Notes under the pieces: model-generated
What the model saw: the letters and a program-made list of their open reading frames with translations, nothing else
Told to the model about the DNA's origin: nothing
Database searches by the model: none
In this document: piece by piece, positions 1 through 64,000 of the stretch
How positions within the stretch are numbered: the stretch's first letter is position 1
How the letters are laid out: every line of letters begins with the position of its first letter
Program-made: the position numbers and the translations under genes
IMG/VR virus record: IMGVR_UViG_3300020388_000010
Origin: a virus
Taxonomy: Duplodnaviria; Caudoviricetes
Strand: one strand, 5' to 3'
Length of the DNA stretch: 64,000 bases

Positions 1-2
1 TT

Positions 3-200
3 CACGCAGATGCACCAGTAACTGCACTTACATTAAATGGTAATGGTAATTATAATATTGGTAGTCAACAACTACCACCAATTACAAATAATGGTGGAAC
101 TGGTGTAGATGGTGATATTGATATGGAAAACGATGCAGCTTGTGTTGGTTTTGTTATTTTAAAGTTAAGAAAAGTTTCTGGTTATAATAACCTATCATAA
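3..200 (+). CDS. 3' end of hypothetical protein upstream of gp21 (partial)
   Basis: Open frame from the window edge (HADAPVTALTLNGNG...GFVILKLRKVSGYNNLS) to TAA at 198-200. Confidence 0.6.
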   Translation, partial: HADAPVTALTLNGNGNYNIGSQQLPPITNNGGTGVDGDIDMENDAACVGFVILKLRKVSGYNNLS

Positions 201-210
201 GGAAAGATGA

Positions 211-858
211 ATGAAATTAATATCTGAAGCACTTGAAAATGTAAAATTTCTTACTGAAGAAGACGATAAAGGTAGCAAAAATTACAAAATTCAAGGTGTA
301 TTTATGCAAGGTAACATAAAGAACCGTAATGGTAGAGTATATCCAACAGATGTTTTGGAAAATGAAGTAAAAAGATACTCTGAAAAATTCATTGAAAAAA
401 ATCGTGCATATGGTGAACTTGGACACCCAGAAGGCCCAACGGTAAATCTGGATAGAGTTTCACATATGGTAACTTCTTTACAAAGAGATGGAGATGATTT
501 TATAGGTGAAGCAAAAATTATGAACACACCAATGGGTAAGATTGTAAAAAATATCATAGATGAAGGTGGCACACTTGGTGTTTCTTCTAGAGGTATGGGT
601 AGTCTTGAACAAAAAAACGGTGCAAATTATGTGAAAAAAGATTTTATGTTGGCAGCTGCTGCTGATATAGTTGCAGACCCCTCTGCACCTAAAGCTTTCG
701 TAAACGGAATTATGGAAGGTAAGGAATGGGTTTGGAATAATGGACTTCTAAAAGAAGTTGAAATAAGTGACATAGTTGAAACTATAGAGAGTTCTGTGCG
801 TAAAAAACTTCCAAATGTGGAAGCTCTTGCGTTTGCAAAATTTCTTAAAAAGTTATAA
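211..858 (+). CDS. gp21: Prohead core protease
   Basis: KNRNGRVYP, GELGHP and LGVSSRGMGS motifs; position before scaffold and major capsid genes. Confidence 0.97.
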   Translation: MKLISEALENVKFLTEEDDKGSKNYKIQGVFMQGNIKNRNGRVYPTDVLENEVKRYSEKFIEKNRAYGELGHPEGPTVNLDRVSHMVTSLQRDGDDFIGEAKIMNTPMGKIVKNIIDEGGTLGVSSRGMGSLEQKNGANYVKKDFMLAAAADIVADPSAPKAFVNGIMEGKEWVWNNGLLKEVEISDIVETIESSVRKKLPNVEALAFAKFLKKL

Positions 859-861
859 AAC

Positions 862-869
862 TATAAATA
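862..869 (+). promoter_or_regulatory. T4-type late promoter TATAAATA
   Basis: Exact gp55 consensus upstream of gp22. Confidence 0.8.
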
Positions 870-900
870 ATAATGATAATTAAAACAAGGAGAACCTTCA

Positions 901-2148: not shown

Positions 2149-2183
2149 TGATAAATATAGTAAATATATAAGGAGAAACTAAG

Positions 2184-3524: not shown

Positions 3525-3546
3525 TAACTACAATCTACCACACCAC

Positions 3547-3577: not shown

Positions 3578-3580
3578 GAT

Positions 3581-3588
3581 TATAAATA
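3581..3588 (+). promoter_or_regulatory. Late promoter TATAAATA
   Basis: Exact consensus just upstream of the gp3 ATG at 3594. Confidence 0.8.
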
Positions 3589-9228: not shown

Positions 9229-9414
9229 ATGTTTAGTTTTATAACAAATTTATTTAAACCAAAACCAAAAAAGATTTCAAAGTCAAGACTTATGACTATG
9301 ACTAAGAGAGAGTTAGAGAATGTAGGTCGTAAACACGGTATTGAATTAGATAGAAGATATCTAAAAGATGACCTTGTTGAACAACTTTGGAAACATATAA
9401 ATGGAAAGAAATAA
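9229..9414 (+). CDS. Small protein with Rho-N/HeH-like motif
   Basis: MTKRELENVGRKHGIELDRRYLKDDLV; strong AAGGAG RBS. Confidence 0.55.
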   Translation: MFSFITNLFKPKPKKISKSRLMTMTKRELENVGRKHGIELDRRYLKDDLVEQLWKHINGKK

Positions 9415-9845
9415 TGTATGAATATAAATGTGAAATTGTCAAGATTGTGGACGGCGACACTATTGATGTCAATATTGATTTGGGTTTCGGTACTTGGATT
9501 CATAATGAACGAATACGCCTCTATGGAATTGACACACCAGAATCAAGAACAAGAGACTTGGAAGAAAAGAAAGCTGGTCTGTACGCAAAAAAGTGTGTGG
9601 AAGGATTTATGCCAGTGGGTTCAAGTCAAGTCTTAATGACAAAGAAAGATAAGTCTGGTAAGTTTGGTAGGGTCTTAGGTGACTTTATAATCTATGATGG
9701 ACAAGAAGATAGAAATATGGGTATCGTTGAGTATATGATAAAACACAATATAGGTGTTGAATATAATGGACAATCCAAACAACAGATTCAAGAACATCAC
9801 TTACAAAATAGACAATATTTAAAATCACAAGGCGTAATAGATTAG
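9414..9845 (+). CDS. Thermonuclease (staphylococcal nuclease) family protein
   Basis: IVDGDTIDV, RIRLYGIDTPE and GKFGRVLG motifs. Confidence 0.9.
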   Translation: MYEYKCEIVKIVDGDTIDVNIDLGFGTWIHNERIRLYGIDTPESRTRDLEEKKAGLYAKKCVEGFMPVGSSQVLMTKKDKSGKFGRVLGDFIIYDGQEDRNMGIVEYMIKHNIGVEYNGQSKQQIQEHHLQNRQYLKSQGVID

Positions 9846-10925: not shown

Positions 10926-11462
10926 ATGGTTGATATAGTTCCGAATGTTGTTTTTAAAACAAGAGTAAAAGATAATGATTGCACGGATTGTCCAAACCCA
11001 TATAAGTGGGAAGATAAATCTACTGATGATTATTTTAGTGGTAAGAAAGTTGTTTTGTTTTCTTTGCCTGGTGCATTTACACCAACTTGTTCAACATATC
11101 AATTACCAGATTTTGAAGCTATGTATTCACAGTTTAAAGAAGAAGGAATAGATGACATTTATTGTATGTCTTGTAATGATGCATTTGTAATGAACAAATG
11201 GGCAGAACAACATAGTTTAGAAAATGTTAAAGTTATACCAGATGGTAATGGAGATTTTACTTCTGGAATGGGTATGTTAGTTAAAAAAGAAAATTTAGGT
11301 TTTGGTGATAGGTCGTGGAGATATGCGGCTATAATAAATGATAAAAACATTGAACATCTTTTTATTGAACCAAACAAAAAAGATAATGCAGATGATGACC
11401 CATATGGTGAAACCTCACCACAAAATATACTTCAGTATATTAAAAGTAATAAAGGAAAGTAA
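10926..11462 (+). CDS. Peroxiredoxin (Prx5/Redoxin family)
   Basis: FSLPGAFTPTCS, NDAFVM and RSWRYA motifs. Confidence 0.93.
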   Translation: MVDIVPNVVFKTRVKDNDCTDCPNPYKWEDKSTDDYFSGKKVVLFSLPGAFTPTCSTYQLPDFEAMYSQFKEEGIDDIYCMSCNDAFVMNKWAEQHSLENVKVIPDGNGDFTSGMGMLVKKENLGFGDRSWRYAAIINDKNIEHLFIEPNKKDNADDDPYGETSPQNILQYIKSNKGK

Positions 11463-11463
11463 A

Positions 11464-12435
11464 ATGAGAAACTTCTTATTTGTATTTACATTATTATTTG
11501 CAACAACTTTGTTTGCACGAGATCAAATTAAAATAGTAGGTAGTTCTACTGTATATCCATTTGCAACAACTGTTGCAGAACGATTTGGTAAGTCTAGTGG
11601 ATTTAAAACACCAGTAGTTGAGTCAACTGGTTCTGGTGGTGGATTAAAACTTTTTTGTGCTGGTATGGGAACACAACACCCAGACATAACAAATGCATCA
11701 AGAAGAATAAAACAAACAGAAATAGATAATTGTAAAAAGAATGGTATCAAAGATATTACAGAAGTTAAAATAGGATATGATGGTATTGCGATTGCAAACT
11801 CAAAAAAAGGTGTTAACTTTCATTTATCAACAAGAGATTTATATCTTGCACTTGCAAAAGATGTACCAGCAGACATTGATGGTAAAACTGTTAAACCTAA
11901 TCCATATAAAAAATGGATAGAAATAAATCCAACATATCCAGACTTACCTATTGCTGTTTATGGCCCACCTCCAACATCTGGTACTAGAGATGCACTTAAT
12001 GAACTTGGTATTGAAAGGGGTTGTAAAACATATCCAGAGAGAAAAAAACTTAAAGAAAAAAATAAAGAATTATATAAATCTGAATGTCGTGCAATAAGAA
12101 CAGATGGTGTATATATAGAAGCTGGTGAGAACGACAATCTAATAATTGAAAAATTAATAACAAACCCAGATTCATTAGGTATATTTGGTTATTCTTTTTT
12201 AGATGAGAATAGAGATAAAGTAAAGGCTGCAACAATTAATGGTGTTAGTCCAGAGTTTGAATTAATTAGTAATGGTACATATCCTATTTCTAGGTCATTA
12301 TGGTTTTATGTAAAAGATGCACACGCAGCTGTAATTCCAGGCATTAGAGAATATACAAAAGAATTTACATCTGATAGAGCAATAGGTGATGACGGATATT
12401 TGATAGGTAAAGGACTCATACCACTTAATGATTAA
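11464..12435 (+). CDS. pstS: Phosphate ABC transporter substrate-binding protein
   Basis: Signal peptide, then RDQIKIVGSSTVYPF, ESTGSGGG, GPPPTSGTRD and YPISRSL. Confidence 0.93.
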   Translation: MRNFLFVFTLLFATTLFARDQIKIVGSSTVYPFATTVAERFGKSSGFKTPVVESTGSGGGLKLFCAGMGTQHPDITNASRRIKQTEIDNCKKNGIKDITEVKIGYDGIAIANSKKGVNFHLSTRDLYLALAKDVPADIDGKTVKPNPYKKWIEINPTYPDLPIAVYGPPPTSGTRDALNELGIERGCKTYPERKKLKEKNKELYKSECRAIRTDGVYIEAGENDNLIIEKLITNPDSLGIFGYSFLDENRDKVKAATINGVSPEFELISNGTYPISRSLWFYVKDAHAAVIPGIREYTKEFTSDRAIGDDGYLIGKGLIPLND

Positions 12436-16768: not shown

Positions 16769-17217
16769 TTAAAAAGATTAGTGTATTGTGTTTATTACCA
16801 TCATTTGTTTTCGCAACAAATCCTTGTGAATATGATAATCAAACTACATCCACAATGCAAGGTACAGTAGAATCAGTAATCGTAAAAGATAAAACAGTAA
16901 CAGAGTATTTTAGAGAAACAAAGAAATGTAAAGTAATAATTAAAGCAAAAGTACAAGGTAAATGGTATATCACTTCAGAAGATTATATATTCACACCAGA
17001 TATGTCAGAAAACGAAGCTTGCCAAAATGCAGTTAATCGTGCAAAAGAAAGATTATTACAAGAGTTTGTTCCAGAAACATTAGAATCAACAAAAAATTTA
17101 AATTGTCAAGTAAAGGCCTTGACAAAACCAAGAATTGAGTGTACAGTAGAAACACTTAATGTTGTAATGCCAGGGTTGGGATTACAAGAAGTTAAACTTA
17201 AACAATGTAATAGGTGA
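16765..17217 (+). CDS. Secreted Cys-containing hypothetical protein
   Basis: Signal peptide ending VFA; six Cys in the mature part. Confidence 0.6.
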   Translation: MIKKISVLCLLPSFVFATNPCEYDNQTTSTMQGTVESVIVKDKTVTEYFRETKKCKVIIKAKVQGKWYITSEDYIFTPDMSENEACQNAVNRAKERLLQEFVPETLESTKNLNCQVKALTKPRIECTVETLNVVMPGLGLQEVKLKQCNR

Positions 17218-24105: not shown

Positions 24106-26595
24106 ATGGATTTTTATACTAATGTAGTGCAATGGGGTAATTTTCTTTTAGTTCGTGGTGTTGATAAAAATCAAAGAGTAAGTTTTAGATTAAAATACAA
24201 ACCAACTTTGTTTGTTCCAGTAATGAAACAAACGGATTGGAAAACTCTTGATGGTAAATCAGTAACACCATATCAATTTGATTGTATAAAAGATGCAAAG
24301 GACTTTTTTCTCAAATACGAAAGTCAGCCTCATCTTGTTCACGGACTAAACAGATTTGCATACACATATATTTCAGATACATTTCCACAGAAGGTAAACT
24401 GGAACATTGATAAACTATTAATTATGACGATTGATATTGAGGTTCAATGTGAGAATGGTTTTCCTAATCCAGAATCTGCAATAGAACCTTTACTTTCTAT
24501 TACAGTTAAAGACCAACAATCTAAAAAAATTATAGTGTGGGGTATTCAACCTTACGAGAATACAAGAGAAAATGTTACTTATATTCGTTGTCCTAACGAA
24601 CACGATTTGATTATGGAGTTTATGTCTTTCTGGACAAAGAACTATCCAGATGTTATTACTGGTTGGAATACAGACTTCTTTGATATTCCTTATCTTGCAA
24701 ATAGAATCAAACAAGTTTGTGGTGAAGATAAAATGCGAGAACTATCACCTTGGAAAAATGTTAGTGCAAGAAAAATATATAGTATGGGTAGAAATCATTT
24801 GATGTATGACATTATGGGTGTATCTCAATATGATTATTTACAACTCTATCAAAAGTTTACTTACACCAGACAAGAATCATACAAGTTAGATTATATTGCA
24901 AGTGTAGAGCTTGGTGAAAAGAAAGATGAAAATCCATACGAAACATTTAGAGAGTGGTATGAAAAAGACTTTCAATCTTTCATTGATTATAATATTCAAG
25001 ATGTGGAAATAGTTGACAAACTAGAAGACAAGATGGGTTTGATTGACCTTGCACTTACTATGGCCTATGAGGGTAAAGTAAATTATTCAGATGTGTTTGG
25101 TCAAGTTAAATATTGGGATATTTTAATCTATAACTTCTTGAGAAAAAGAAAGATTGTTATACCACAGAAAAAGTCTTATAACAAAAACGAACAATATGAA
25201 GGTGCATATGTAAAAGAACCGATTACTGGTTTACATAAGTGGGTTGTATCATTTGATTTGAATTCACTATATCCACATTTAATTATGCAATATAATCTCT
25301 CACCAGAAACATTATTGAAAAGTAAACATCAAGACATTACAGTTGATGATATGTTAAAAGGTATTAAACTAGACATACCAGATAGAACTACTATGACACC
25401 AAATGGTGCATTGTTTAGAACAGATAAAAAAGGTTTCTTACCAACTATGATGGAAGAGTTATACAATGAACGAGTGACTTACAAAAAGAAAATGTTATCT
25501 GCACAACAAGAATTTGAAAACACAAAAGACAACAAGTATAAAAAACTGATAAGTCGTTATAACAATATTCAGATGGCTCGTAAGATTTCTTTGAACTCTG
25601 CTTATGGTGCAATAGGTAATCAATATTTTCGTTATTACGATAAAGCGATTGCAGAGGGTATTACAAAGAGTGGTCAATTATCTATTCGTTGGATTGAAAA
25701 CAAACTTAACAAATATCTAAACAATGTTTTAAAAACAGATGATGATTATGTGATTGCATCTGATACCGACTCTGTTTATTTGACTATGGATAAACTTGTT
25801 AGTGAAACAATTAAAAGTGATAATGCACTTAGTAAAACAATAAACTTTCTAGACAAGGTTGCATCAGAATCTATTGAACCATACATTACAAAATCGTATG
25901 ACGAACTTAAACAATACACAAATGCATATGCAAATAAGATGTTTATGAAACGAGAAGTGATTGCAGACAAAGGTATTTGGGTTGCAAAGAAAAGATATAT
26001 TCTAAATGTTTGGGATAGTGAAGGTGTATCATACAAAGAAGCAAAGTTGAAGATGATGGGTATTGAAGCTGTCAAGTCATCAACGCCTGCAATGTGTAGA
26101 CAAAAGATTAAAGATGCACTTGAACTTATAATGACAAGTGATGAAAAAGAATTAAACAAGTTTGTAATTAATTTTAGAGAAGAGTTTCTTAAAGTAAAAC
26201 CAGAATTGATTTCGTTTCCTCGTTCAGTAAATGGTTTATCAAAATACTTTGATAGTGGAACAACATTTAAAAAGTCAACACCTATGCATATCAAAGGTGC
26301 ATTGATATACAATCATAAGATAAAACAAAATAAACTTATAAACAAATACCCTTTGATACAAGAGGGTGATAAGATTAAGTTTGTTTATTTAAAACAACCT
26401 AATCCATTTACTTCAAATGTAATCACATACATTACTAAACTTCCTAAAGAATTTGATATACACAGTTTTGTTGATTATGATATACAGTTTGAAAAAGTTT
26501 TCATTGACCCCTTGACATTAATTTTAAATAGTATAAAATGGAATATAGATAGAACTTATGGAACACAAGGTAACTTAGAGGATTTTTTTGGGTAA
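24106..26595 (+). CDS. gp43: DNA polymerase, family B
   Basis: DIEV exonuclease motif; SFDLNSLYP, KISLNSAYG, SDTDS, KKRY. Confidence 0.99.
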   Translation: MDFYTNVVQWGNFLLVRGVDKNQRVSFRLKYKPTLFVPVMKQTDWKTLDGKSVTPYQFDCIKDAKDFFLKYESQPHLVHGLNRFAYTYISDTFPQKVNWNIDKLLIMTIDIEVQCENGFPNPESAIEPLLSITVKDQQSKKIIVWGIQPYENTRENVTYIRCPNEHDLIMEFMSFWTKNYPDVITGWNTDFFDIPYLANRIKQVCGEDKMRELSPWKNVSARKIYSMGRNHLMYDIMGVSQYDYLQLYQKFTYTRQESYKLDYIASVELGEKKDENPYETFREWYEKDFQSFIDYNIQDVEIVDKLEDKMGLIDLALTMAYEGKVNYSDVFGQVKYWDILIYNFLRKRKIVIPQKKSYNKNEQYEGAYVKEPITGLHKWVVSFDLNSLYPHLIMQYNLSPETLLKSKHQDITVDDMLKGIKLDIPDRTTMTPNGALFRTDKKGFLPTMMEELYNERVTYKKKMLSAQQEFENTKDNKYKKLISRYNNIQMARKISLNSAYGAIGNQYFRYYDKAIAEGITKSGQLSIRWIENKLNKYLNNVLKTDDDYVIASDTDSVYLTMDKLVSETIKSDNALSKTINFLDKVASESIEPYITKSYDELKQYTNAYANKMFMKREVIADKGIWVAKKRYILNVWDSEGVSYKEAKLKMMGIEAVKSSTPAMCRQKIKDALELIMTSDEKELNKFVINFREEFLKVKPELISFPRSVNGLSKYFDSGTTFKKSTPMHIKGALIYNHKIKQNKLINKYPLIQEGDKIKFVYLKQPNPFTSNVITYITKLPKEFDIHSFVDYDIQFEKVFIDPLTLILNSIKWNIDRTYGTQGNLEDFFG

Positions 26596-28764: not shown

Positions 28765-28868
28765 CTACACATTTTGCAGACCCTTATATAGTGGTATTAT
28801 TGAGAGAGTGTGTTATATTAAAATAGAATCACAATTAAGTGATATCCATTAAAACAAAAGGAGTTAAG

Positions 28869-29855
28869 ATGGAAATTAAAAAAAAGGCAATATCAGCCTC
28901 AGAAGAAATATTAGGATTTAATCCTAAATCAAAAGAAGAAGATATCTTTAGAGTTGTAATGACACCAAAAATGGCAAGGTATATTCTTAATAATCATAAT
29001 AAACATAACAGAAAGTTTGTTCCAGCTCAATTAAAAGCAATAAACCTTAGTGTAGACAGACATAACTGGTTACACACTGGTGATACTTGTGCATTTGATA
29101 CAACTGGCAATTTAACTGAGTTTCAACATAGACTAGAAAATATTGCAGCTGAAAGAAAAAACAGAGTTGTTTGGATTGCAACTGGTGTTAGAAAAGATAG
29201 TTTTGAAAAGGCTGCACCAGCAAAAAACCGAACTAAGTTTGATGTTGTATGGCGTTATGAAAAAAGTGCAACAAAAGATGAGGTCACTACCTTAGAACAA
29301 GTTTTAAGAATGAGAAAAGGGAAGGACAAACAATCTATTGATACCGAAACTTTAACAATGGTAAATGCACTAAGTTTATTTAGAGTATGGAAAGAATATA
29401 TTCGTATAGGTATGAACATAACCAATAAATTTTTTGAAGATAAAAAAGTTAGAAGATTTTTACCTTGGCAAAGAATTTTAAATGCTTGGGCAACAATTTT
29501 AGTCTTTCAAGGTAAAGATGAAATACCAAAAAACTTTTTATCACTACTTAAAACTCATCTCACAACAACAAAAAAAGTTCAACTCTTTACAGAAATGAAT
29601 GAGTATTTTCTTGGAGATGAGGGTAAAGGTGTCGGTTGGATTACTGGAACAAAAAAATCTGAACAGATGTTTTATATGTTATGTAAAGCCACAGATAGAT
29701 TTTTAATCGCACCAGAAGGTGATTGTGAGTTCGGTTTAAGTCTTGCAGAATCTAATCACACAAATATGCTTCAACAGAGTTCAACTTATAGAAGTTTTTT
29801 AATGAATCCTCAAGGATTAAAATTAAAAACTAAAAACATAGTAACTTTATTTTAG
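28869..29855 (+). CDS. Hypothetical protein with ParB/DGQHR-like N-terminal domain
   Basis: MTPKMARYIL...NR...W..TGD...GNLTEFQHRL; AAGGAG RBS before ATG 28869. Confidence 0.55.
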   Translation: MEIKKKAISASEEILGFNPKSKEEDIFRVVMTPKMARYILNNHNKHNRKFVPAQLKAINLSVDRHNWLHTGDTCAFDTTGNLTEFQHRLENIAAERKNRVVWIATGVRKDSFEKAAPAKNRTKFDVVWRYEKSATKDEVTTLEQVLRMRKGKDKQSIDTETLTMVNALSLFRVWKEYIRIGMNITNKFFEDKKVRRFLPWQRILNAWATILVFQGKDEIPKNFLSLLKTHLTTTKKVQLFTEMNEYFLGDEGKGVGWITGTKKSEQMFYMLCKATDRFLIAPEGDCEFGLSLAESNHTNMLQQSSTYRSFLMNPQGLKLKTKNIVTLF

Positions 29856-29858
29856 ATT

Positions 29859-30383
29859 ATGATTATAATGATTAGTGGTATACCTTGCTCTGGCAAAACC
29901 ACATTACTTAAATCTATAATAAAAGACTTGGGTTCATATGAAAATTGTGAACCCACTTCTTTATTTAAATGTCAAAAATTTAAAGATGTTCTTGTAATAG
30001 GTCAATATCCAGAAAATGAAACATTTGGTGGTACTGACAGATTATCATATGGAACAATTAGTAAGTTTCAAGATTTTATAAACACACAATCAAAACAATA
30101 TAAACACATTATCTTTGAGGGTGATAGGTTCACAAATAATATTGAGTGGGTACTTGACAAACACCAAAGTATAGTGTATATTCTAATAGTAAGCTATGAA
30201 GAAGAAAATAAAAGACACACTTTGAGAAAAGACAATCAAAGTGAAACTTGGTTAAAAGGAAGAAGAACCCAAATAGACAATATACAAAAGAATTTAAGTC
30301 TTATGGGAAGATTACAGATTAGAGATACTTCAGATGGTATCAATACTGTAAAGGGTGAAATTATGGAGATACTGAATGCCTGA
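29859..30383 (+). CDS. P-loop nucleotide kinase-like protein
   Basis: GIPCSGKT Walker [16 protein letters not shown]. Confidence 0.75.
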
Positions 30384-31416
30384 TTTTTTAAAAGAAGTTA
30401 TCAAAACAACTGGTAACGAATATGCATCATTAGTTTCAGACGGAGTTGGAGCTGGTGATGTAGATGAATTTATTGATACTGGGTCATATGCTTTAAATGC
30501 ATTATTATCTGGTTCAATAAATGGTGGACTTCCAGCAAATAAGATTACTGCAATCGCTGGTGAAAGTGCAACTGGTAAAACATTTTTTCTGATGGGTATG
30601 TGTAAAAACTTTCTGGACAAAAATCCAGAGAGTGGTGTCATATACTTTGAAAGTGAAAGTGCGATTACTAAACAAATGATTATTGATAGAGGTATTGACC
30701 CATCAAGAATGGTTATACTTCCAGTAACAACAGTACAAGAATTTAGAACTCAATCATTGAAAGTTCTAGATAGCTATATTAATCAAGAAGAATCTATTCG
30801 TAGACCATTATTTCTTGCATTAGATTCACTTGGTATGTTATCAACAACAAAAGAAGTTGAAGATACTGCTGAGGGAAAAGAAACAAGAGATATGACTCGT
30901 GCTCAAGTTCTTAAAGCTGCATTTAGAGTGTTGACTTTAAAACTTGGTAAAGCAAAAGTACCTATGGTTGTAACGAATCACACATATGATGTTGTTGGTT
31001 CTATGTTTCCAACAAAAGAAATGGGTGGTGGTTCTGGATTAAAATATGCAGCTTCTTCTATTGTATATCTTTCTAAAAGAAAAGAAAAAGAAGGAACAGA
31101 AGTTGTAGGTAATATTATACATTGTAAAAACTTTAAATCAAGACTTACCATTGAAAACAAAATGGTAGATGTTAGACTAACATATAATAAAGGTCTTGAT
31201 AGATATTATGGATTACTTGAACTTGCAGAAAAATATAAAGTATTCAAAAAAGTTTCAACAAGGTATGAATTACCAGACGGTTCAAAACAATATGGTAAAA
31301 CTATATTGAATGACCCAAAGAAATATTTCACTAAAGATGTTATGGCCATCTTAGATGAATGTGCAAAAAAGGAATTTAGATATGGTGGAACAGAAAGCGT
31401 TGAAGAAAGCGAATGA
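30376..31416 (+). CDS. uvsX: RecA-like recombinase UvsX
   Basis: [28 protein letters not shown]. Confidence 0.96.
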
Positions 31417-37315: not shown

Positions 37316-40300
37316 AGAGTTATTAGAAGAAGAGGTATCAAGAAAAGATATAAATGATTTAGAAAAATTTGCAGATAGAATATTAAAAAAATATGGAGTT
37401 GATATAGAATTTACTAAACACTTTGTAGATAGAATGAATGACCCAAGAAATAGTCCAGAGATAAAAGTATCTGAACTACAAAGGTTCTTTAAAAAGATTC
37501 AAAAAAACAAAGCGAGAAATATAATAAACAACCCAGACATACAAGCTGTTTTAAAAGATATGTCAACTAATTTAAATTTACCAGTTGTTATTAAAACAAA
37601 AGGTAATGAGATAGAAGTAACAAACAAGACTATTATGAGAAAACCAGATTTTAAAACACCTAATAAGGTTATTAAGTACGAGTCATTTAGAACTTTTTCA
37701 GAAGCAACTGAATCAGTTGTATTTACATTTGGTAGATTTAATCCACCAACAACTGGTCACGAAAAACTAATAGAGAAAGTCAAGAAGATTGCTGGTGGTG
37801 ATGACTATTATATATTCCCATCACATTCTCAGAACAATAAGAAAGACCCTTTACCACTTGCAAAGAAAGTTGCATATATGAGAGATATGTTTCCAAAACA
37901 TAAAAGAAACATAATCGCAAATAATAAATTAAAAACAGTTTTAGATATTGCAGTTTATTTTCACCAACAAGGTTATGTAGAATTAAATATGGTGGTGGGT
38001 TCGGATAGAGTTGCAGAGTTTAAAAAACTGTTGACAACATATAATGGTCAAGAAAAAAGACACGGTTTTTACGATTTTGATACTATACAAATTTTTAGTG
38101 CTGGTGAAAGAGACCCAGATGCAGAAGGTGTTACTGGAATGAGTGCATCTAAGATGAGAGCAGCTGCAACCAATAATGATTATGATACATTTCAAAAAGG
38201 ATTACCACGAGGTTTTAAAAATGGTAATCAATTATTCAAGGATGTGAGGAAAGGTATGAACTTAAAAGAGAATTCAAAATACTCTGATGAAGAAATTGAA
38301 AGAGATTTATATGTCAGAGGTGCAATCTATCAAATCGGAGATTTGGTAGAAAATATAAATGATGGAACTAGTGGTGAGATAATTAGAAGAGGTACTAACT
38401 ATGTGCAATACACAGATGGTGAAAATGTGCATAAAGCATTTCTTCATTCAATAAAAGAAACAAAAAAAATAACAAAAACAAAACAAGACTCAGATATAAA
38501 AGACAGTCCAGGCTCTGAACCAGCAAAGTATTATGCAAAAGGTGTAGGTGATAAAAAAGGAATGTCTGTATCTACTAAAAAGGCAAGAGATGCCCATTTT
38601 ACAAAGGGAGCGAAAATGGACGATGACAACCCAAATGCATATAAACCAGCGCCTGGTGATAAAGATAAGAAAACTAAACCTTCACAATATACTAAAAAGT
38701 TTAAACAGATGTATGGTGAAGTTTCAGAAAAAAGAATAGACCCAGCAGATATTGATGATTTTGCAACAGATGATGATATTAAAGCTGCAGATAAAAATAT
38801 TATGATGCAGTTAAGAAAGTCTGTATCTTTACGAGGTAATTTTCCAGTACAATTTATGGATAAGAAGAAAGTAAAAGTTTCATCTAAGATTGCACAAGCA
38901 GTTCAATCAAAATATGATTCTATGAAAAAAGCATCTGATAAAGAAAAATTTCAGAGTAAAATTTCTAAATCATATAAAGATTTATTAAGTGCGTTGAAAG
39001 AACAACTTAATATTAATGAACAACCAAAACACGAAATTACAGTAGGTGATTACACAACTAAGTTTTTCTATATGTGTGGTTCTGCACAAACAACTATGAA
39101 AAAACACGCAGATAAAGAAGGTGCAGAAGAACTTACTCGTATGCAAGATTTATTTTATAAAATGGAAAAAGATGCAATGGACTCTGGTGGTGCAAGTGAT
39201 GAACAGAAAAAGAAATCACAAATACTCTATGATAAAATAATTGCAAAAGCAGACGATATAGGTATTAAGAATGAAGTTGACAAATATATGAAACTTCATT
39301 TGACTTCAATGTTAAATAATAAACCTAAACTAGGATTTGGTAGAACAGATATTAGTGAAAGTCTTTGGAAAAACATTCATAAAAAAAGACAAAGAATAAA
39401 ACAAGGTTCTGGTGAGAAGATGAGAAAACCTGGCGAGAAGGGAGCTCCAACACCAGCACAATTAAAAAGAGCAAAAGGTGAAGAAACTGATATAAAAGAA
39501 ATGCCCTATTATAGAAAAATCTATGATAAGATACATCAAATGGTGCATCCTAAAGGTTATGATAGGATACTTAAAATGTACATACAAATGCATAAACAAG
39601 GACATAGAAATCCTGCTCAAGCATTAGGACAAATGGTAAAAGGTGTTAATGCAAGAGATGTTGCATATTACATTAATGGTTTAGTAAAAAAAGGTAAATT
39701 ACCATCTGACCTTGCAGCTAAAGTTGATTTTGAAATAGACGAATCGGTAAATCTTAATGAGAAGATTGAAGGTTTAGTTAAGAAATCACAACAAACTGGT
39801 GTTCCTTATGGTATTCTAAAAAAGAGTTATGATAGAGGACTTGCAGCTTGGAAAACTGGACACAGACCAGGCACTACTCCACAACAATGGGCATTTGCAA
39901 GAGTGAACTCAATGTTAACTGGTGGTAAAGCAGACCCAGATTTACAAAAACAAGCAAGAGCATCTAAAAAGAAAAAGAAAAAAGAATCATATGAAATAGG
40001 AGAACCTTATGCTAGACATACATTTGATGTTACACCAGGCCAAGACTATGAACAGTCAGTCAAGTCAAAGGTTGCGAGTGAATCCAACATACAAGACTGG
40101 TTTGAAAGACCGTCTACTAGAAAAGAGTATCAAGAAAGATACAAAGATGAGTGGGAAGAAAAACTCCAAGAAACCTATAATCTTATGAGGTCAAAGATTT
40201 CTAAAGATGATTTAGAAGATAAATATATAGAGAAACTAGAGATAGTAGAATCTGAATATCAAGGTCGTAAAGTTAAGTTAAATGACCCATTTAGACTACC

Positions 40301-42968: not shown

Positions 42969-44489
42969 ATGAGTTTATGGAGTATGAATGATGGCTCCGC
43001 TTTATCTGGTACTCACACTTACACGAATGGAAGTGCGATTGTACAAGCTAATGCAAGTGGAGCATACAAAACCGAAGTAAAAATCGGTGATGTAGTTACT
43101 ACAGCTGGTGGAGAAAAAGTGAGAGTAAAAGACCTTACACCACCTAGAACAGTTGCTACATCTGCTGTAAACGCAAGTAATGAAAGAATTACCATTACTT
43201 CACACGGATATACTGCAAACACACCACTCACATATAGTGCAGCTGGTGGAACTGCAATCGCTGGAATCACAGACGGACAAATCGTATTTGTTAAAACTGT
43301 TCACGATGCAAACACAATAGATGTATCTGCAACAGAAGGCGGTTCAGTAATTAATATAACTGGAACTGGTAATAATTCACAAACATTTATTGGTGAAACA
43401 AATACTGGTATGACATTAACATCTGATTTTGGTGGAAGCACAGAAAGTGGTGTTGCCGCAACTGTATCAAGACCACCAATAAACGGACACGGTGGAACTA
43501 TTGATAGCACCGTATTTGGTATAGATGAAGGTGAATCTGTTGCTGGTGTTGATAATGTGACTGATATTGCATTAACATCAACTACTGGTGCAAGATATGT
43601 ACAAGCACCAACTATTACTGTTGCAGGGCCAACTGCAAGAGTTCTTACAACTGCAAATGTTTCACTTGCAAACGATACATTTACCATTACAGGCCACAAT
43701 ATGAGAACTGGTACATCTATAACTTATAATAGTCAAGGTGGAACTAATCTTGCACAAAATAGTGGTAACATTACAGATGATACTGAATTATTTGTTATTC
43801 GTGTAGATGCAGACACTATTAAGTTAGCAAGTTCACTTTCTAATGCAGAAGCTGGTACTGCACTTGATATGACTGGTGGTTCTGGTAATGTTGGTAATAA
43901 CTCACAAACATTAACTGGTACTACTGCAACTGCAACTGCAACAGTTTCTGGTGGAGCTGTTTCTGCAATTACTGTAACAGCAGTAGGTTCTGATTATCAA
44001 TCTACACCAGCTGTAACAGTTGAAGCACCAAAAATGACAATTCCAACTGGTAATGTAAATGCTGGTACTAATGTAATCACATTTACTGGACACGGACTAA
44101 CAGATGCTGACCAAATCACTTACAACCAAGTAGGTGGTGGAACTTTAATGACCAATGTAACTAACGGACAAACTGTATTTGTTAGAGATAAAACTGACGA
44201 TACCTTTAAGATTGCAGCTACTGAAGGTGGAACTGCGATTAACATTGGTACTGGTCATAGTGCTCAAACATTTACTATTGTAACTGGTGCAACAACAGCA
44301 ACTGCTGTAGCTTCAACTGGTTTAGGTAATGACGGTGATAGTAACACCACAGAACTTAGCCATGTAGGTTGGGTTAAGAAAACAGTAGGTACTGGTGGTC
44401 GTGCTGGTAGAGTTCAATATGAAACTCTAGTTGCTGCTTCAAGTATTTCTGGTGATGCTGCTGATGATATCGCACTACCAGATAGCTAG
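42969..44489 (+). CDS. Virion structural (fibre/decoration) protein with three beta-rich repeats
   Basis: Thr/Gly/Ala-rich; repeats ITSHGY, ITGHNM, FTGHGL; late promoter. Confidence 0.75.
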   Translation: MSLWSMNDGSALSGTHTYTNGSAIVQANASGAYKTEVKIGDVVTTAGGEKVRVKDLTPPRTVATSAVNASNERITITSHGYTANTPLTYSAAGGTAIAGITDGQIVFVKTVHDANTIDVSATEGGSVINITGTGNNSQTFIGETNTGMTLTSDFGGSTESGVAATVSRPPINGHGGTIDSTVFGIDEGESVAGVDNVTDIALTSTTGARYVQAPTITVAGPTARVLTTANVSLANDTFTITGHNMRTGTSITYNSQGGTNLAQNSGNITDDTELFVIRVDADTIKLASSLSNAEAGTALDMTGGSGNVGNNSQTLTGTTATATATVSGGAVSAITVTAVGSDYQSTPAVTVEAPKMTIPTGNVNAGTNVITFTGHGLTDADQITYNQVGGGTLMTNVTNGQTVFVRDKTDDTFKIAATEGGTAINIGTGHSAQTFTIVTGATTATAVASTGLGNDGDSNTTELSHVGWVKKTVGTGGRAGRVQYETLVAASSISGDAADDIALPDS

Positions 44490-52126: not shown

Positions 52127-54035
52127 TGGTAAACTTCCAACTAATTATCAAGAATTTATACACCTATCAAGATACTCAAGGTGGATACCGAAAGAAGGTA
52201 GAAGAGAAACTTGGAGAGAAACAGTAACTAGATACTTTGATTTTTTTCAAGAACATTTGAAACAAAGTTGTAAATATAATCTAGATAAGTCATTGAGAGA
52301 AGAGTTGGAAGATGCAGTAATACATCTTGATATTATGCCTTCTATGAGATGTTTAATGACAGCTGGTGAAGCACTAAGAAGAGAAAATATTGCTGGTTAT
52401 AATTGTAGTTATGTTGCAGTTGATAGACCACAAGCATTTGACGAAATACTATATGTATTGATGAATGGAACTGGGGTAGGATTCTCAGTTGAAAGACAAT
52501 TTGTTGGTAATCTACCAACAGTTGCAGAAGAGTTTCACCCTAGTGATACAACTATTGTTGTTCAAGACAGTAAAATGGGTTGGGCAAAAGCATTTAAAGA
52601 ACTTGTTGCAATGTTATATCACGGACAAATACCTAAATGGGATTTAACTAAAGTAAGACCAGCTGGTGCTCCACTAAAAACTTTTGGTGGTCGTGCATCT
52701 GGGCCTGAACCATTACATAGATTATTTGAATTCACAACAGAAATATTTCAAAATGCACACGGAAGAAAATTAAGTTCTATTGAATGTCACGATATTGTTT
52801 GTAAAACAGCAGAGATTGTTGTTGTTGGTGGTGTTAGAAGAAGTGCATTAATTAGTTTATCTAATCTTTCTGACGATAGAATGAGAGTTGCAAAGTCTGG
52901 TCAATGGTGGATTGATAATGGTCAAAGAGCACTTGCAAATAACTCTGCTTGTTATACTGAGAAACCAGACATAGGTATTTTTATGGACGAATGGAAAGCA
53001 CTTTATGATTCTAAGTCTGGTGAACGAGGAATATTCAACAGAGAATCTGCAAAGAGAATTGCAGAGAAGAATGAAAGAAGAGATGTTGGATATGATTTTG
53101 GAACAAATCCTTGTTCAGAAATAATTTTACGAAGTAGAGAATTTTGTAACTTATCTGAAGTTGTTGTCAGACCAAAGGATACAGAAGATACATTACTAAG
53201 AAAAGTAAAACTTGCAACAATACTTGGAACATTTCAATCTACACTTACTAATTTTAAATATGTAAGTAAAGATTGGAAAAAGAATTGTGTTGAAGAAAGA
53301 TTATTAGGTGTATCTCTTACTGGTATTATGGATAATAAATGGACTGCTGGTAAATTAAATGGTTTAGATGTGTTATTAAAAAACCTTAAACAAATGTCAG
53401 TAGATACTAACAAAGATTGGTCTAAGAAATTAAAGATTAATCACTCAGCTGCGATTACTTGTGTGAAACCGTCTGGAACTGTTTCACAATTAGTAGATAG
53501 TGCAAGTGGTATTCACGCTAGACACAATCCTTATTATATTAGAACTGTAAGAGGTGATAAGAAAGACCCACTTACAAAGATGATGGTAGAAGAAGGTTTT
53601 CCTAATGAAGATGATGTTATGAAACCAAATGATACTACTGTGTTTTCTTTTCCAATAAAATGTAGTCCAGATGCAGTATTTAGACAAGATTTAACTGCGA
53701 TTGAACAACTAGAACTTTGGAAAACATATCAAGTACATTGGTGTGAACACAAACCTTCAGTTACTATTTCTGTAAAAGAAGAAGAATGGATTGATGTTGG
53801 GGCTTGGGTATATAAGAACTTTGACTTAATGAGTGGAGTGAGTTTCTTACCATATAGTGAACATACATATAAACAAGCACCGTATCAAGATTGTGATGAA
53901 AAAGAGTATAATGATTTATTGAATAAAATGCCTATTACTGTTGATTGGAATAAGTTATCAGAGTATGAGAAATCCGATATGACAGTAGGTTCACAAGAAC
54001 TTGCGTGTTCGTCTGGTTCTTGTGAGATTCAGTAA
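52119..54035 (+). CDS. nrdJ: Ribonucleotide reductase, class II (adenosylcobalamin-dependent)
   Basis: SRYSRW...RRETW, YNCSY, VVVGGVRRSA, GTNPCSEI, TCVKPSGT, C-terminal ACSSGSCE; no adjacent beta subunit. Confidence 0.85.
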   Translation: MLNGKLPTNYQEFIHLSRYSRWIPKEGRRETWRETVTRYFDFFQEHLKQSCKYNLDKSLREELEDAVIHLDIMPSMRCLMTAGEALRRENIAGYNCSYVAVDRPQAFDEILYVLMNGTGVGFSVERQFVGNLPTVAEEFHPSDTTIVVQDSKMGWAKAFKELVAMLYHGQIPKWDLTKVRPAGAPLKTFGGRASGPEPLHRLFEFTTEIFQNAHGRKLSSIECHDIVCKTAEIVVVGGVRRSALISLSNLSDDRMRVAKSGQWWIDNGQRALANNSACYTEKPDIGIFMDEWKALYDSKSGERGIFNRESAKRIAEKNERRDVGYDFGTNPCSEIILRSREFCNLSEVVVRPKDTEDTLLRKVKLATILGTFQSTLTNFKYVSKDWKKNCVEERLLGVSLTGIMDNKWTAGKLNGLDVLLKNLKQMSVDTNKDWSKKLKINHSAAITCVKPSGTVSQLVDSASGIHARHNPYYIRTVRGDKKDPLTKMMVEEGFPNEDDVMKPNDTTVFSFPIKCSPDAVFRQDLTAIEQLELWKTYQVHWCEHKPSVTISVKEEEWIDVGAWVYKNFDLMSGVSFLPYSEHTYKQAPYQDCDEKEYNDLLNKMPITVDWNKLSEYEKSDMTVGSQELACSSGSCEIQ

Positions 54036-60799: not shown

Positions 60800-60923
60800 A
60801 TTATTACTATTTTTTACTGGTTTCTTTTTTGGTATGTTTGTAATGCAAACAATAGATATGTTTACAATACTAAAAGAGTTTAAAGGTGAAATTGAAAATT
60901 ATAAAAAAAAACTAAGGAGATAA
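60792..60923 (+). CDS. 43-aa membrane peptide
   Basis: MGELLLFFTGFFFGMFVM...; GGAG RBS. Confidence 0.5.
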   Translation: MGELLLFFTGFFFGMFVMQTIDMFTILKEFKGEIENYKKKLRR

Positions 60924-60927
60924 TATT

Positions 60928-61101
60928 ATGGTAAGTAAACTTGATAGACTTATGATGCTTCAAGAGGAAATAAAGATTGCAAAAAAGTTTGTAAAAGAAA
61001 ATGGCCCAGAAGATATGGGTTATGTCCACACTGCAATTAATTATATAGAAGAAAGAATTATTGACTTGAGATTAGAGATTAATAAGAAGTTAGATGCCTA
61101 G
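60928..61101 (+). CDS. 57-aa hypothetical protein
   Basis: AAGGAG RBS; MVSKLDRLMMLQEE... Confidence 0.6.
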   Translation: MVSKLDRLMMLQEEIKIAKKFVKENGPEDMGYVHTAINYIEERIIDLRLEINKKLDA

Positions 61102-61393
61102 ATACGATTTCTATAACAAAAAAGAAGATAAATATTTTGATGAATTTATGTCTTATGATGAGAAAGTAGACTATTTAAAAAATAATCCTAATATTGAACC
61201 TGCTGATTATTTAAATATGAATGTGGTTAGTGGAGTTACTAAAAGTGAAAAAGGTGATTCTGGTATGAGAGAAGTGTTTAGTAAGATTGCAGAAAAACAT
61301 CCTACAAGCCCACTCGCAGATAGATATGGTAAAAAATCTATCAGAAAATTAAAAGCAAAAAGAGCATATGACAAACACAAAAATCGCACTTAG
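61094..61393 (+). CDS. FmdB-like conserved phage protein
   Basis: MPRYDFYN...FMS...YLKNNP...EVFSKIAEKHP. Confidence 0.6.
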   Translation: MPRYDFYNKKEDKYFDEFMSYDEKVDYLKNNPNIEPADYLNMNVVSGVTKSEKGDSGMREVFSKIAEKHPTSPLADRYGKKSIRKLKAKRAYDKHKNRT

Positions 61394-62093
61394 TTTAATA
61401 ATACTTAGTATAATATTGTTGATACCTAAATTTTCTACATCTGATAGTTGGAATGAATGGTTAAACGATAATTTATATAAAGACCAGTTTTTAGAACAAA
61501 CTGATGACATAATTATTGAATCACCTTATCGTGCAATAGACGGTGGAAATGTTCCCATTGTTATCACAACAAAATCAAAAGACTTAATTAAATTTACTTT
61601 AATTATAGATGAGAATCCAACACCTTGTTGTGCAACATTTGAGTTTGTAGGTTTGTTACCATATATAGAAACTAATATAAGAGTAAATGCATACACTTAT
61701 TTAACTGTTGTTGCAGAAGATATAGATGGTAATTTATATGTTAATAGAAAGTATATTAAGGCGGCTGGTGGTTGTTCTGCAACTCCAATAGTTAATAGTG
61801 ATATACCAAAAGATAGAGTAGATATTATTGATGACAAATTACATTTTGATAAAAAGAAAATACAATTCAATCACCCAAACTATTCTGGACTACAATTTGA
61901 TCAATTAACTAGAACAGAAATACCAGCAGATTATATTGACTCTGTTGTTGTTAAAACAAGTAAAGGTATATTCTCATATGAGGGAACAATCGGTATATCA
62001 CAAAATCATTACTTTACTTTGTTTAGTGGAGATATAGAAAAAATAGTATATACTGATAATTTAGGAAATAATTACGAGGAAAGTTATGAGTAA
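61368..62093 (+). CDS. Fused SoxYZ-like periplasmic carrier (quinoprotein dehydrogenase-associated type)
   Basis: Signal peptide; SPYRA.DG..VP, IIDENPTP, IRVNAYT, KAAGGCS, then HPNYSGLQFDQLT. Confidence 0.8.
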   Translation: MTNTKIALSLIILSIILLIPKFSTSDSWNEWLNDNLYKDQFLEQTDDIIIESPYRAIDGGNVPIVITTKSKDLIKFTLIIDENPTPCCATFEFVGLLPYIETNIRVNAYTYLTVVAEDIDGNLYVNRKYIKAAGGCSATPIVNSDIPKDRVDIIDDKLHFDKKKIQFNHPNYSGLQFDQLTRTEIPADYIDSVVVKTSKGIFSYEGTIGISQNHYFTLFSGDIEKIVYTDNLGNNYEESYE

Positions 62094-62790
62094 AAAACAA
62101 GACATTAAATTAGATAATTTAGTTACTGTAAAACCAATTACAGATAATCAAAAGGTAGTCTTTAATGCCTGGAGAAAAGACAATAAGAATTTGTTTTTGT
62201 TTGGTGCAGCTGGTACTGGAAAAACTTTTATATCAATGTATCTAGCATTAGAGCAAGTGTTAGACCCAAAAACTAAGTACGAAAATGTTATCATTATTCG
62301 TTCAGTTGTTCCAACAAGAGATATGGGGTTTCTGCCTGGTGATGAAGAAGATAAGTCTGCATTGTACCAAGTACCATATCACAATATGGTTCAGTTTATG
62401 TTTGAACAATCAAGTGATAATGCATTTAGTATGTTATACGACAGATTAAAGAATCAAGGTAGTGTTACCTTCTTGACAACTTCATATCTTCGTGGTATAA
62501 CATTAGATAACGCTGTCGTAATTGTTGACGAATCTCAGAACTGTAACTTTCACGAGTTAGATACGATTGTTACAAGAGTTGGTCAAGACAGTAAAATTAT
62601 ATTTTGTGGTGATTTCTTTCAATCAGATTTGACCAAGATGAGTGAAAAAGAAGGACTACAAGATTTTATGAGAATATTAGAACAAATGAAAGAATTTGAA
62701 ACAGTAGAATTTACAATAGGTGATATTGTTCGTTCTGGTTTTGTTCGTAATTATTTAATAGAAAAAACAAAACTTGGTCTAGGAGAGTAA
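62086..62790 (+). CDS. phoH: PhoH-like ATPase
   Basis: GAAGTGKT, GFLPG, RGITL, VDESQN, GDFFQSD, IVRSG. Confidence 0.95.
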   Translation: MSKKQDIKLDNLVTVKPITDNQKVVFNAWRKDNKNLFLFGAAGTGKTFISMYLALEQVLDPKTKYENVIIIRSVVPTRDMGFLPGDEEDKSALYQVPYHNMVQFMFEQSSDNAFSMLYDRLKNQGSVTFLTTSYLRGITLDNAVVIVDESQNCNFHELDTIVTRVGQDSKIIFCGDFFQSDLTKMSEKEGLQDFMRILEQMKEFETVEFTIGDIVRSGFVRNYLIEKTKLGLGE

Positions 62791-62796
62791 TATATT

Positions 62797-63009
62797 ATGC
62801 AAAGTACAAAACAAAGATGGGATTGGAGAATACAAGAAACATTAGTGAAAGAAGTATTAAGACTTGACCCAGAAAACGACTACATTAAAAAGTGGTGTGA
62901 AATGGGAAATCATCACGGTGCGAATATTCGTAAGGCTAGAGATTATTATTTAAAACACGGAAAATCACCAGAAGAAAATGGTGAACACCCAGAAGGAAGT
63001 TGTATATGA
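62797..63009 (+). CDS. Hypothetical protein
   Basis: AGGAG RBS. Confidence 0.55.
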   Translation: MQSTKQRWDWRIQETLVKEVLRLDPENDYIKKWCEMGNHHGANIRKARDYYLKHGKSPEENGEHPEGSCI

Positions 63010-63602
63010 TTAAGAAATGTTTAATCATTGCAAGTGTTATTGCATTACCTTTTACTAGTAATGCAGAACACATACACACTAAAGATTGTAATCACTCAAG
63101 AGGTTATTATGCAAAGTTTGGTTATGGTTTACAAGACGGATTAAATGGTGGTAGTAATGCATCAGAGTATGGACTTACTGTTGGTAAGAAACTAAATGAT
63201 GTATTCTCTGCCGAAATAAAAACAAGATTAAAAGTAAAAGATAATTCTACTAGTAATGACCAGAGAGCAGAATTTGCATTGATAAGTTCTAAAAAAGTTT
63301 ATGGTAAACTTAGTATGTACATACGAGGTGGTGCTGGATATAAATTTACTAGAGATAAAAGTCACGAATACTGGCACATAGAGCCTGGTCTAAAATATAA
63401 ATTAAATAATGTCTGGAGTATCAAAGGTGGTGTAAGATTCAGAGATAGTTTTGATTCAATATACGAACAAACAGACATTACATATAAGGCAGGGTTATCT
63501 TATAAACTTGATAAGAATAATAGTATAGGTATTGGAAGTAAATTTAAAAGAGGCGATAGTCAATATAATGCAATAGGTGTGAGTTACAAGGTAAATTTTT
63601 AG
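63006..63602 (+). CDS. Outer-membrane beta-barrel protein (small porin-like)
   Basis: Signal peptide, alternating amphipathic strands, C-terminal IGVSYKVNF. Confidence 0.78.
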   Translation: MIKKCLIIASVIALPFTSNAEHIHTKDCNHSRGYYAKFGYGLQDGLNGGSNASEYGLTVGKKLNDVFSAEIKTRLKVKDNSTSNDQRAEFALISSKKVYGKLSMYIRGGAGYKFTRDKSHEYWHIEPGLKYKLNNVWSIKGGVRFRDSFDSIYEQTDITYKAGLSYKLDKNNSIGIGSKFKRGDSQYNAIGVSYKVNF

Positions 63603-63611
63603 GAGAGAAAT

Positions 63612-64000
63612 ATGTCTGAAAGATTGAGTAAAAACTTTACTGTTGCAGAATATATTAAATCACAAACTGCAACACGACACGGAATAGATAATTCATTAAG
63701 TGAAGAACATTTACAAAATGCAAAAAAATTATTTGCAAATGTTGTACAACCAATAAGAGAAAAGTTTGGTGTAACACTTATTACATCTGGGTATAGAAGC
63801 CCAGATTTAAATGCAAAGATAGGTGGTTCGTCTAAATCACAACATTGTAAAGGTCAGGCAGTTGACCTTGAATGTCTAAAAGAAAGTAATGCAGATGTTG
63901 CTATGTGGATAGAAAACAATCTAGATTTTGACCAGCTCATTTTAGAGTTCTATACACCAGGCGACCCTAGAAGTGGGTGGATTCATATATCTTATAATGA
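63612..64000 (+). CDS. Peptidase M15 family endolysin (partial)
   Basis: LSKNF, SGYRS..LN..IGGS..SQH..G.AVD, WIHISY; runs off the window. Confidence 0.88.
   Translation, partial: MSERLSKNFTVAEYIKSQTATRHGIDNSLSEEHLQNAKKLFANVVQPIREKFGVTLITSGYRSPDLNAKIGGSSKSQHCKGQAVDLECLKESNADVAMWIENNLDFDQLILEFYTPGDPRSGWIHISYN

Follow-up and report, generated by a model that had tools for sequence, protein, structure and literature searches.

We analysed a 64,000-nucleotide stretch of viral DNA (Duplodnaviria; Caudoviricetes; IMG/VR record IMGVR_UViG_3300020388_000010), called the window throughout, in which the genes for a family B DNA polymerase (polB) and the recombinase UvsX enclose a C5-cytosine DNA methyltransferase (C5-MTase) gene, an adjacent gene for a TET/JBP-type dioxygenase, and two further genes, and along whose full length restriction-like sites of the CC type are allowed only inside GCC or GGC. 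All long open reading frames (ORFs) lie on the plus strand, GC content is 31%, and the replication genes are T4-like (gp45, gp44, polB, UvsX, and a gp41-type helicase). Among isolates, Methylophilales phage Melnitz and Pelagibacter phage HTVC008M come closest, and the window is therefore a marine, T4-like, pelagimyophage-type genome. Expected counts given below come from 300 synonymous-codon shuffles that kept every protein and the codon usage of each gene, with 93 to 98 genes called for this null model and 95% of the window bases coding.

The rule is sharpest at CCWGG (W, A or T), where a site was counted as shielded if it read GCCWGG or CCWGGC, i.e., had a 5' G or a 3' C. The window holds 36 such sites, 20 with the 5' G only, 15 with the 3' C only, one with both, and none unshielded, while the shuffles predicted 35.0 sites with 27.3 ± 3.0 unshielded (minimum 19); taking the shielded fraction of the shuffles (7.7/35), the chance that all 36 are shielded is 2e-24. 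The flank is created by synonymous codon choice. All 33 Pro-Gly dipeptides are shielded through one of two spellings, either G-CCT-GGW, in which the preceding codons are rare G-ending ones (18 pairs; binomial p 2e-9), or CCA-GGC (15 pairs; p 1e-11), though GGC makes up 5% of the glycine codons. Likewise, the 21 Gly-Pro pairs are all written with GGC or GGG, against 1035 uses of GGT or GGA elsewhere (Fisher p 3e-23), and GGWCC is absent (23.6 expected) while GGSCC (S, C or G) occurs 23 times (3.8 expected). CCTG/CAGG is reduced to 70 occurrences from an expected 226, distributed as 56 with a 5' G (20 expected), 12 with a 3' C only (52 expected), and two with neither (153 expected; both listed in Table 1).

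Sites that cannot overlap GCC are removed, in a lineage-specific way. In the window, ACGT and TCGA are absent (84 and 72 expected), GATC occurs 11 times (154 expected), CATG, which is reachable only through GCA, once (118 expected), and CCGG not at all (15.5 expected); for ACGT, TCGA, CATG, and GATC the depletion beyond protein sequence and codon usage corresponds to z scores of −10 to −16. The avoidance is visible codon by codon, with histidine ahead of a G-starting codon written CAC 75 times and CAT once, and with none of the 535 internal ATG codons preceded by a C-ending codon. Also avoided are CAATTG (0; 30 expected), AGTACT (0; 18 expected), and CTTAAG (0; 12.5 expected), and GTCTC/GAGAC (8; 44 expected), GGATG/CATCC (19; 59 expected), and GACGC (5; 20 expected) are low. 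Enriched words include TGCA (516; 345 expected), GGCC (36; 16 expected), and CCAG plus CTGG (426; 265 expected). Among other GC-containing words, AGCA/TGCT occurs 280 times (471 expected).

A preliminary description, made by reading the sequence, had reported most of this pattern, and the observation is confirmed. Its Gly-Pro count, its two unflanked CCTG/CAGG sites at their positions, the scarcity of GATC, the dodging of CATG through CAC before G, the absence of CCGG, and the purging of sites that cannot be shielded were all reproduced; every Pro-Gly pair is GC-flanked as it had said, though there are 33 and not 34. It had allowed that exact codon-controlled counts might reveal many unshielded sites, and the counts returned no unshielded CCWGG, no GGWCC, and two CCTG/CAGG sites without GC. 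GC-containing palindromes, which it had called common, are so for TGCA and GGCC, while AGCT is tolerated yet below expectation (96 against 138). Its proposal that C in any GpC shields overlapping sites named a real flank rule and drew the context too broadly, as the following scan indicates.

To define the shape of the rule, all 4- and 5-mer cores were combined with every 5' base in the window and in Melnitz. The only rescuing base was G, its effect being confined essentially to cores that start with CC, namely CCTG, CCCG, and CCGC in the window and CCGG, CCCG, CCTGG, CCTCC, and CCTGA in Melnitz. A G flank gives CATG no rescue (GCATG 0 against ~31 expected), and GCAGG is weakly tolerated (12 against 52 expected); the protective context is therefore GCC/GGC and not all GpC. 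Lineages without the CCTG rule contain both GCCTGG and GCCAGG, so that the CCWGG rule does not depend on that for CCTG. In Melnitz, GCCAGGR (9; 5.3 expected) and hCCAGGC (40; 12 expected) are tolerated, while hCCAGGT and hCCAGGR are absent (36 and 34 expected; h, not G; R, A or G). The flank rule is thus symmetric, with 5' G or 3' C sufficing, as would be expected of a mark placed on a palindromic GC step, and a putative modification at the GC step of GCC/GGC is its best interpretation. Taken together, the rule operates at the codon level and across the clade, and covers CCWGG, CCTG/CAGG, CCCG, and CCGC here and CCGG in relatives.

Table 1. Features of the 64-kb window discussed in the text (aa, amino acids)
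Feature	Position	Strand	Basis and remarks
Family B DNA polymerase gp43 (polB)	24106..26595	+	PF00136 and PF03104; left border of the variable modification island
C5-cytosine DNA methyltransferase, 399 aa	26588..27787	+	PF00145, 187 bits (cut-off 22); candidate writer of the GCC mark
TET/JBP-type 2-oxoglutarate-Fe(II) dioxygenase, 326 aa	27784..28764	+	PF12851, 44.5 bits (cut-off 34.9); overlaps the stop codon of the methyltransferase gene
338-aa protein	28839..29855	+	No known family; matches phrog_5931, a function-unknown family
P-loop nucleotide kinase-like protein, 174 aa	29859..30383	+	PF18751 (Ploopntkinase3), E 8e-6, below cut-off; possible tailoring enzyme
UvsX/RecA-like recombinase	30376..31416	+	PF00154; right border of the island
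Mom-family protein, 264 aa	14271..15065	+	PF25680, 180.8 bits (cut-off 27.1), E 3e-53; just upstream of gp46
CCTG/CAGG exception 1	17170..17174	+	CAGG at 17171; reads atgCCAGGg, still G-flanked as CCWGG
CCTG/CAGG exception 2	39429..39433	+	Reads aaaCCTGGc, still C-flanked as CCWGG
Sole CATG in 64 kb	44361..44364	+	
Window-wide footprint	1..64000	.	CCWGG, CCTG/CAGG, CCCG, and CCGC tolerated only as GCC.../...GGC (codon-shuffle counts)
Purged words in the footprint	1..64000	.	GGWCC, ACGT, TCGA, CCGG, CATG, GATC, CAATTG, AGTACT, CTTAAG

The island proteins offer a candidate for the writer of such a mark. The C5-MTase, 76% identical to that of Melnitz, belongs to PF00145 and conserves in alignment the motifs GSPPCPPFS (motif IV, with the catalytic Pro-Cys) and ENVKG. 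Among solved structures, SpCmoX of Synechococcus phage S-B43 (8YF3; E 2e-69) is by far its nearest; the two share SPPC, though the window enzyme has Leu (GLMV) at the position of CmoX R350 (GRMV), where MT2a and MT2b of a relative of the window (L019) carry Arg. With Leu in place of Arg350, the window enzyme is therefore expected to be a methyltransferase, fitting its TET neighbour, and homology supports its placement in the phage group of GC-specific C5-MTases and CmoX, with its own motif predicted. The TET protein, 78% identical to the neighbouring gene product of Melnitz, is a PF12851 member with the iron-binding HxD motif as His-Ile-Asp at residues 225-227, and the kinase-like protein is 58% identical to a Melnitz island protein. 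For the 338-aa protein, no match was found in Pfam or NCBIfam, nor by tblastn of other loci except at 41% in L234, and its gene is absent from L034, a 99%-identical relative; a ParB-like identity is a weak lead, drawn from an Atlas neighbour cluster with ParB_N in 13% of its members.

The footprint was then compared with MTase status among relatives, which in IMG/VR are mostly fragmentary contigs in which absence of an MTase or Mom gene is no evidence. Melnitz, with MTase and TET, has genome-wide 68 CCWGG sites with none unshielded (69 expected), 15 CCGG with none unshielded (55 expected), no GGWCC (68 expected), and a normal CATG count. In HTVC008M, which has no such MTase/TET, 108 of 132 CCWGG sites are unshielded and GGWCC occurs 69 times (63 expected). 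HTVC008M avoids other sites, i.e., TCGA (2; 205 expected), GGCC (19; 75 expected), CGCG (1; 32 expected), and GATC (81; 321 expected). Across 34 dereplicated IMG/VR lineages with MTase and TET, none of 76 CCWGG sites is unshielded. L019, at 82% nucleotide identity to the window, lacks the rule, and at 15 of its 19 HCCTGD sites (H, not G; D, not C) the window has been recoded synonymously. Which sites are avoided varies sharply from lineage to lineage: CATG is absent from the window's 99% group and occurs 28 times per 16.6 kb in L019, and loci L041-L050, L070, L074, and L076 (~53% polB identity) have 0-3 TGCA per 4-12 kb, no CATG, and ordinary unshielded CCWGG.

Comparison over ~150 loci showed the polB-uvsX interval to be a hypervariable island. 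At least five modification gene sets interchange there, even among contigs with 96-99% identical polB (compared islands: window 26588-30383; L034 12483-18658; L048 12487-15662; L018 12487-15022; L019 6590-9711; L012 9969-11093). The 99% relative L034 keeps the MTase and TET genes, but where the window has the 338-aa protein and kinase, four different genes follow, with an EcKL-like kinase and a cytidylyltransferase among their products. Alternative islands hold an N6_N4-MTase-like SPPY protein, a DruA-like protein, CmoX-like pairs (Arg350) with an Asn-synthetase-like gene, or nothing. The SPPY protein, with a motif typical of N4-cytosine enzymes, precedes either pyridoxal phosphate (PLP)-fold-like and GNAT-like proteins or another MTase half together with an unknown protein; its 420 aa (L018 12487-15022; L048 12487-14375) cover just the N-terminal half of an N6_N4 MTase. 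In L048 the S-adenosylmethionine-binding half (DPFMGSGTT) is encoded by a separate ORF directly after it, whose place the PLP-fold-like and GNAT-like proteins take in L018 and its relatives. The islands of L019 (6590-9711), L025-L028, and L253-L269, with an Asn-synthetase-like gene and one or two Arg350 C5-MTase-like genes, resemble CmoY/CmoX 5-carboxymethylcytosine systems. Most such CmoX-like lineages lack the rule, with 24/37 CCWGG sites unshielded in a first sample and 65/97 in a second, and a subgroup obeys it (L215, L218, L225, L232, and L234). Lineages with and without the footprint lie interspersed at short distances in the polB tree, and each N4-type lineage has a close sister with MTase and TET. 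Finally, the L151 cluster (L146-L153) carries an MTase homologue (74% identical) away from polB, with no TET within 10 kb, and in L151 all four CCWGG sites are flanked on both sides (GCCWGGC).

We infer from these patterns that the rule reflects a protective modification at GCC/GGC. In the favoured mechanism, the C5-MTase, the most likely writer in this phage, would methylate GC[C/T] after replication, the adjacent TET enzyme would convert the resulting 5-methylcytosine to 5-hydroxymethylcytosine, and further tailoring of the base may fall to the kinase and the 338-aa protein, while the selecting agents would be sequence-specific nucleases met during infection, from host restriction-modification or otherwise. 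Attribution to the MTase draws on the specificity of its family and on a one-way co-occurrence. The whole chain of a GCC/GGC mark, a C5-MTase writer, and nuclease selection is, in our estimation, only somewhat more probable than its failure at some step, because MTase and TET always come with the footprint but the footprint also comes without them.

Several observations weigh against this chain. The strongest is G007 (IMGVR_UViG_3300027791_000007), a complete genome of 148,443 bp collinear with the whole circular Melnitz map, in which no C5-MTase, TET, or N6/N4 MTase was found by Pfam or by family hidden Markov models (HMMs) with all filters off, the same HMMs detecting their Melnitz counterparts with E values no worse than 1e-197. 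Its CCWGG sites are nevertheless shielded in 65 of 68 cases (3 unshielded; 64 expected), with GGWCC at 2 (72 expected), CCGG at 15 with none unshielded (44 expected), and HCCTGD at 12 (413 expected). The rule also persists where the island is of the N4 type (0/13 CCWGG unshielded), carries the DruA-like protein (1/48), or is empty (0/17). Further, the sequence fits a mark on C in GCC and one on G in GGC alike, and GCTA/TAGC is depleted (85 against 241 expected) despite containing GC. Finally, SAR11 bacteria are reported to carry hardly any restriction-modification systems, and the selecting nucleases might therefore be phage-borne. The preliminary description had held the MTase to be the cause and had named the same bias in relatives without it as grounds for rejection; G007 is such a relative, and that interpretation is accordingly only partly supported.

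The polB of G007 is at most 71% identical to that of any sampled lineage with MTase and TET, from which it follows that its footprint is maintained and not inherited; a legacy explanation for G007 was rejected on this ground. Its island (L206 5203-11066) encodes a DruA-like protein, a ParB/Noc-like protein of 403 aa that is homologous to a 427-aa Melnitz island protein, a protein of 328 aa, a TET-associated glycosyltransferase (TAGT), endonuclease VII, a Mom-family protein, and MazG. The best structural matches of the 328-aa protein are the T4 beta- and alpha-glucosyltransferases (BGT and AGT), from a predicted model with a mean local-distance confidence (pLDDT) of only 66. The 403-aa protein as a divergent MTase and the 328-aa protein as a divergent TET were both tried and rejected, since hhalign and BLASTP returned nothing for either and the folds appear ParB/Noc-like and BGT/AGT-like, respectively. 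No dCMP hydroxymethylase was found in G007, and its island thus holds glycosyltransferases without a recognisable enzyme that makes the hydroxymethyl base. All-against-all BLASTP found no universal island protein, and no plausible writer emerged from the set of genes that the window, Melnitz, and G007 share and HTVC008M lacks, Mom being the sole base-modifying enzyme in that set. As judged from its island genes, G007 probably modifies its DNA by an unrecognised route.

That the clade-wide footprint outlives swaps at polB-uvsX implies that several writer kits use one GCC address, or else that the clade shares a writer not yet recognised. Accordingly, the GCC/GGC mark might have a writer other than the C5-MTase/TET pair, namely a shared unrecognised writer or kits like that of G007 (two DNA-glycosyltransferase-like proteins, a ParB-like protein, and Mom), with the MTase/TET pair an add-on that shares the context. 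The G007 footprint, the persistence of the rule with DruA-like, N4-type, and empty islands, and the predicted BGT/AGT-like fold, TAGT, and ParB/Noc-like protein of G007 all speak for it; we nonetheless think it rather unlikely, as no candidate emerged among the genes shared by the window, Melnitz, and G007 and absent from HTVC008M, the context of Mom misfits, and the family of the window MTase has exactly the required specificity. A different question is who cuts. Nucleases encoded by the phage or by competing phages, acting in host-DNA breakdown or superinfection exclusion, could have selected the footprint in place of host restriction-modification, each phage keeping its genome free of, or shielded at, the sites of its own nucleases. 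Such an origin would suit the reported near absence of restriction-modification in SAR11, on which HTVC008M, with its TCGA and GGCC deficits, was isolated, as well as the different avoided-site sets of very close relatives and a staphylococcal-nuclease-like (SNase-like) nuclease that the window, Melnitz, and G007 share and HTVC008M lacks. However, nucleases of the SNase type lack site specificity, no sequence-specific endonuclease gene was found in the scanned parts of the window, and the many independent avoided sites resemble a diverse restriction-modification landscape, and we consider phage nucleases distinctly unlikely as the selecting agents.

Gene flow in a recombining population could also have left the footprint as a relic that is no longer needed or maintained here, and the alternation of MTase/TET, N4-type, and DruA-only islands among contigs with 96-99% polB identity is what such exchange would produce. 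We hold this to be very improbable given that the rule is perfect at CCWGG in the window and nearly so at CCTG/CAGG, persists across lineages with 60-70% identical polB, in which synonymous sites are saturated, and has been lost completely in L019. Least credible of all is that adenine modification by Mom, codon or dinucleotide bias, or mutation pressure makes the pattern. The window does carry a bona fide Mom-family gene, with homologues in G007 (66% identical, inside the polB-uvsX island) and Melnitz (63%, elsewhere) and none in HTVC008M, and CAGGC fits the older S-A-S-N-Y consensus. Mu Mom modifies the A of SAS, an adenine glycinamide modification (PMC13219725), and SAS occurs in every CCWGG and GGWCC whatever the flank, yet GGWCC is absent. 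The A-less CCGG, CCCG, and CCGC obey the rule, and the absence of hCCAGGT, which fits S-A-S-N-Y, with tolerance of GCCAGGR contradicts a Mom shield, as does L046, where a Mom homologue (62% identical) occurs without the footprint. Bias of codons is already fixed, with the protein sequence, in the null model. In the N4-type relatives L048 and L018 the GCC footprint is kept and the syntenic place holds no Mom gene. Mom probably provides a second layer of protection, independent of the first.

Returning to the modification reading, one extension of it would account for the swaps by a conserved address layout, in which vulnerable CC-type sites are kept inside GCC/GGC clade-wide while writers are exchanged at polB-uvsX, or a shared writer goes unrecognised; the kits would then be C5-MTase/TET, the SPPY N4-type MTase-like protein, and the glycosyltransferase/ParB/Mom set. 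We offer this layout and its kits jointly, as a tentative proposal that is more easily wrong than right. If true, the layout would lock in which new writers are acceptable, and it would imply intense site-specific nuclease pressure in SAR11/OM43-type hosts thought to be nearly free of restriction-modification. If the favoured reading holds, codon choices report, without wet-lab data, both the modification context (GCC, not GCA) and the nuclease specificities that a phage faces, yield predictions for Melnitz and its OM43 host, which are already in culture, and open a route to assigning specificities to thousands of uncharacterised MTase/TET/CmoX modules in viromes. G007, with a footprint and no writer, flags an unrecognised modification route, and avoidance this strong is at odds with the idea that restriction pressure from streamlined marine hosts is slight.

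Elsewhere in the window, auxiliary genes lie at 11338-12435, 61368-62093, 9387-9845, 18758-19711, and 52119-54035; their listed products are a PstS-like phosphate-binding protein, a SoxY-SoxZ fusion, the SNase-like protein, a DUF932 protein, and a match to a fragment of B12-dependent ribonucleotide reductase. As a pointer to the host, the PstS-like gene gave no signal, its matches (54-65% identity) being scattered over many Proteobacteria.

The enzyme pair and restriction avoidance are both known already; flank-dependent avoidance that spells out a modification context and persists across writer swaps appears to be undescribed in the literature searched. Among the closest systems is clade II/B of the virome C5-MTase/TET (5mYOX) pairs of Burke et al. 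(2021), which are preceded by a DNA polymerase gene and followed by one for a P-loop kinase or glycosyltransferase and for which GpC[C/T] specificity was measured, some enzymes leaving GCA untouched (PMC8256090). The window shares their gene order (polB, C5-MTase, TET, kinase-like gene) and marine virome origin, and the measured specificity matches the GCC context deduced here, with anti-restriction the role proposed for them. Their specificity was measured in Escherichia coli, with no phage-genome footprint reported, whereas that of the window is read from codon choices, and the footprint here is also found in relatives without the pair. The closest solved homologue, SpCmoX of the SpCmoX/CmoA/CmoY system of S-B43, is a C5-carboxymethyltransferase that requires a GC motif and binds the carboxymethyl group through Arg350 (8YF3; PMC12783734); the window enzyme shares the SPPC motif but differs in its Leu and in having a TET partner, not an amide ligase, and true CmoX-like pairs, with Arg and an Asn-synthetase-like neighbour, occupy the same island in L019-type relatives, most of which lack the footprint. 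Phage Mu Mom (PMC13219725) has a clear family member in the window and is likewise a broad anti-restriction modification, but its SAS context cannot give the GC-flank rule. Compared by specificity alone, chlorovirus M.CviPI is similar in type, being a virus-encoded orphan C5-MTase that acts at the level of the GC dinucleotide, while the context here appears narrower, with GCC far above GCA. Phages classically avoid restriction-site palindromes. The window conforms in that 4-6 bp palindromes and type IIS sites are strongly depleted beyond the codon-controlled expectation, and departs from classical avoidance in that its sites are tolerated or enriched when they overlap GCC/GGC, with Pro-Gly and Gly-Pro recoded to create that overlap.

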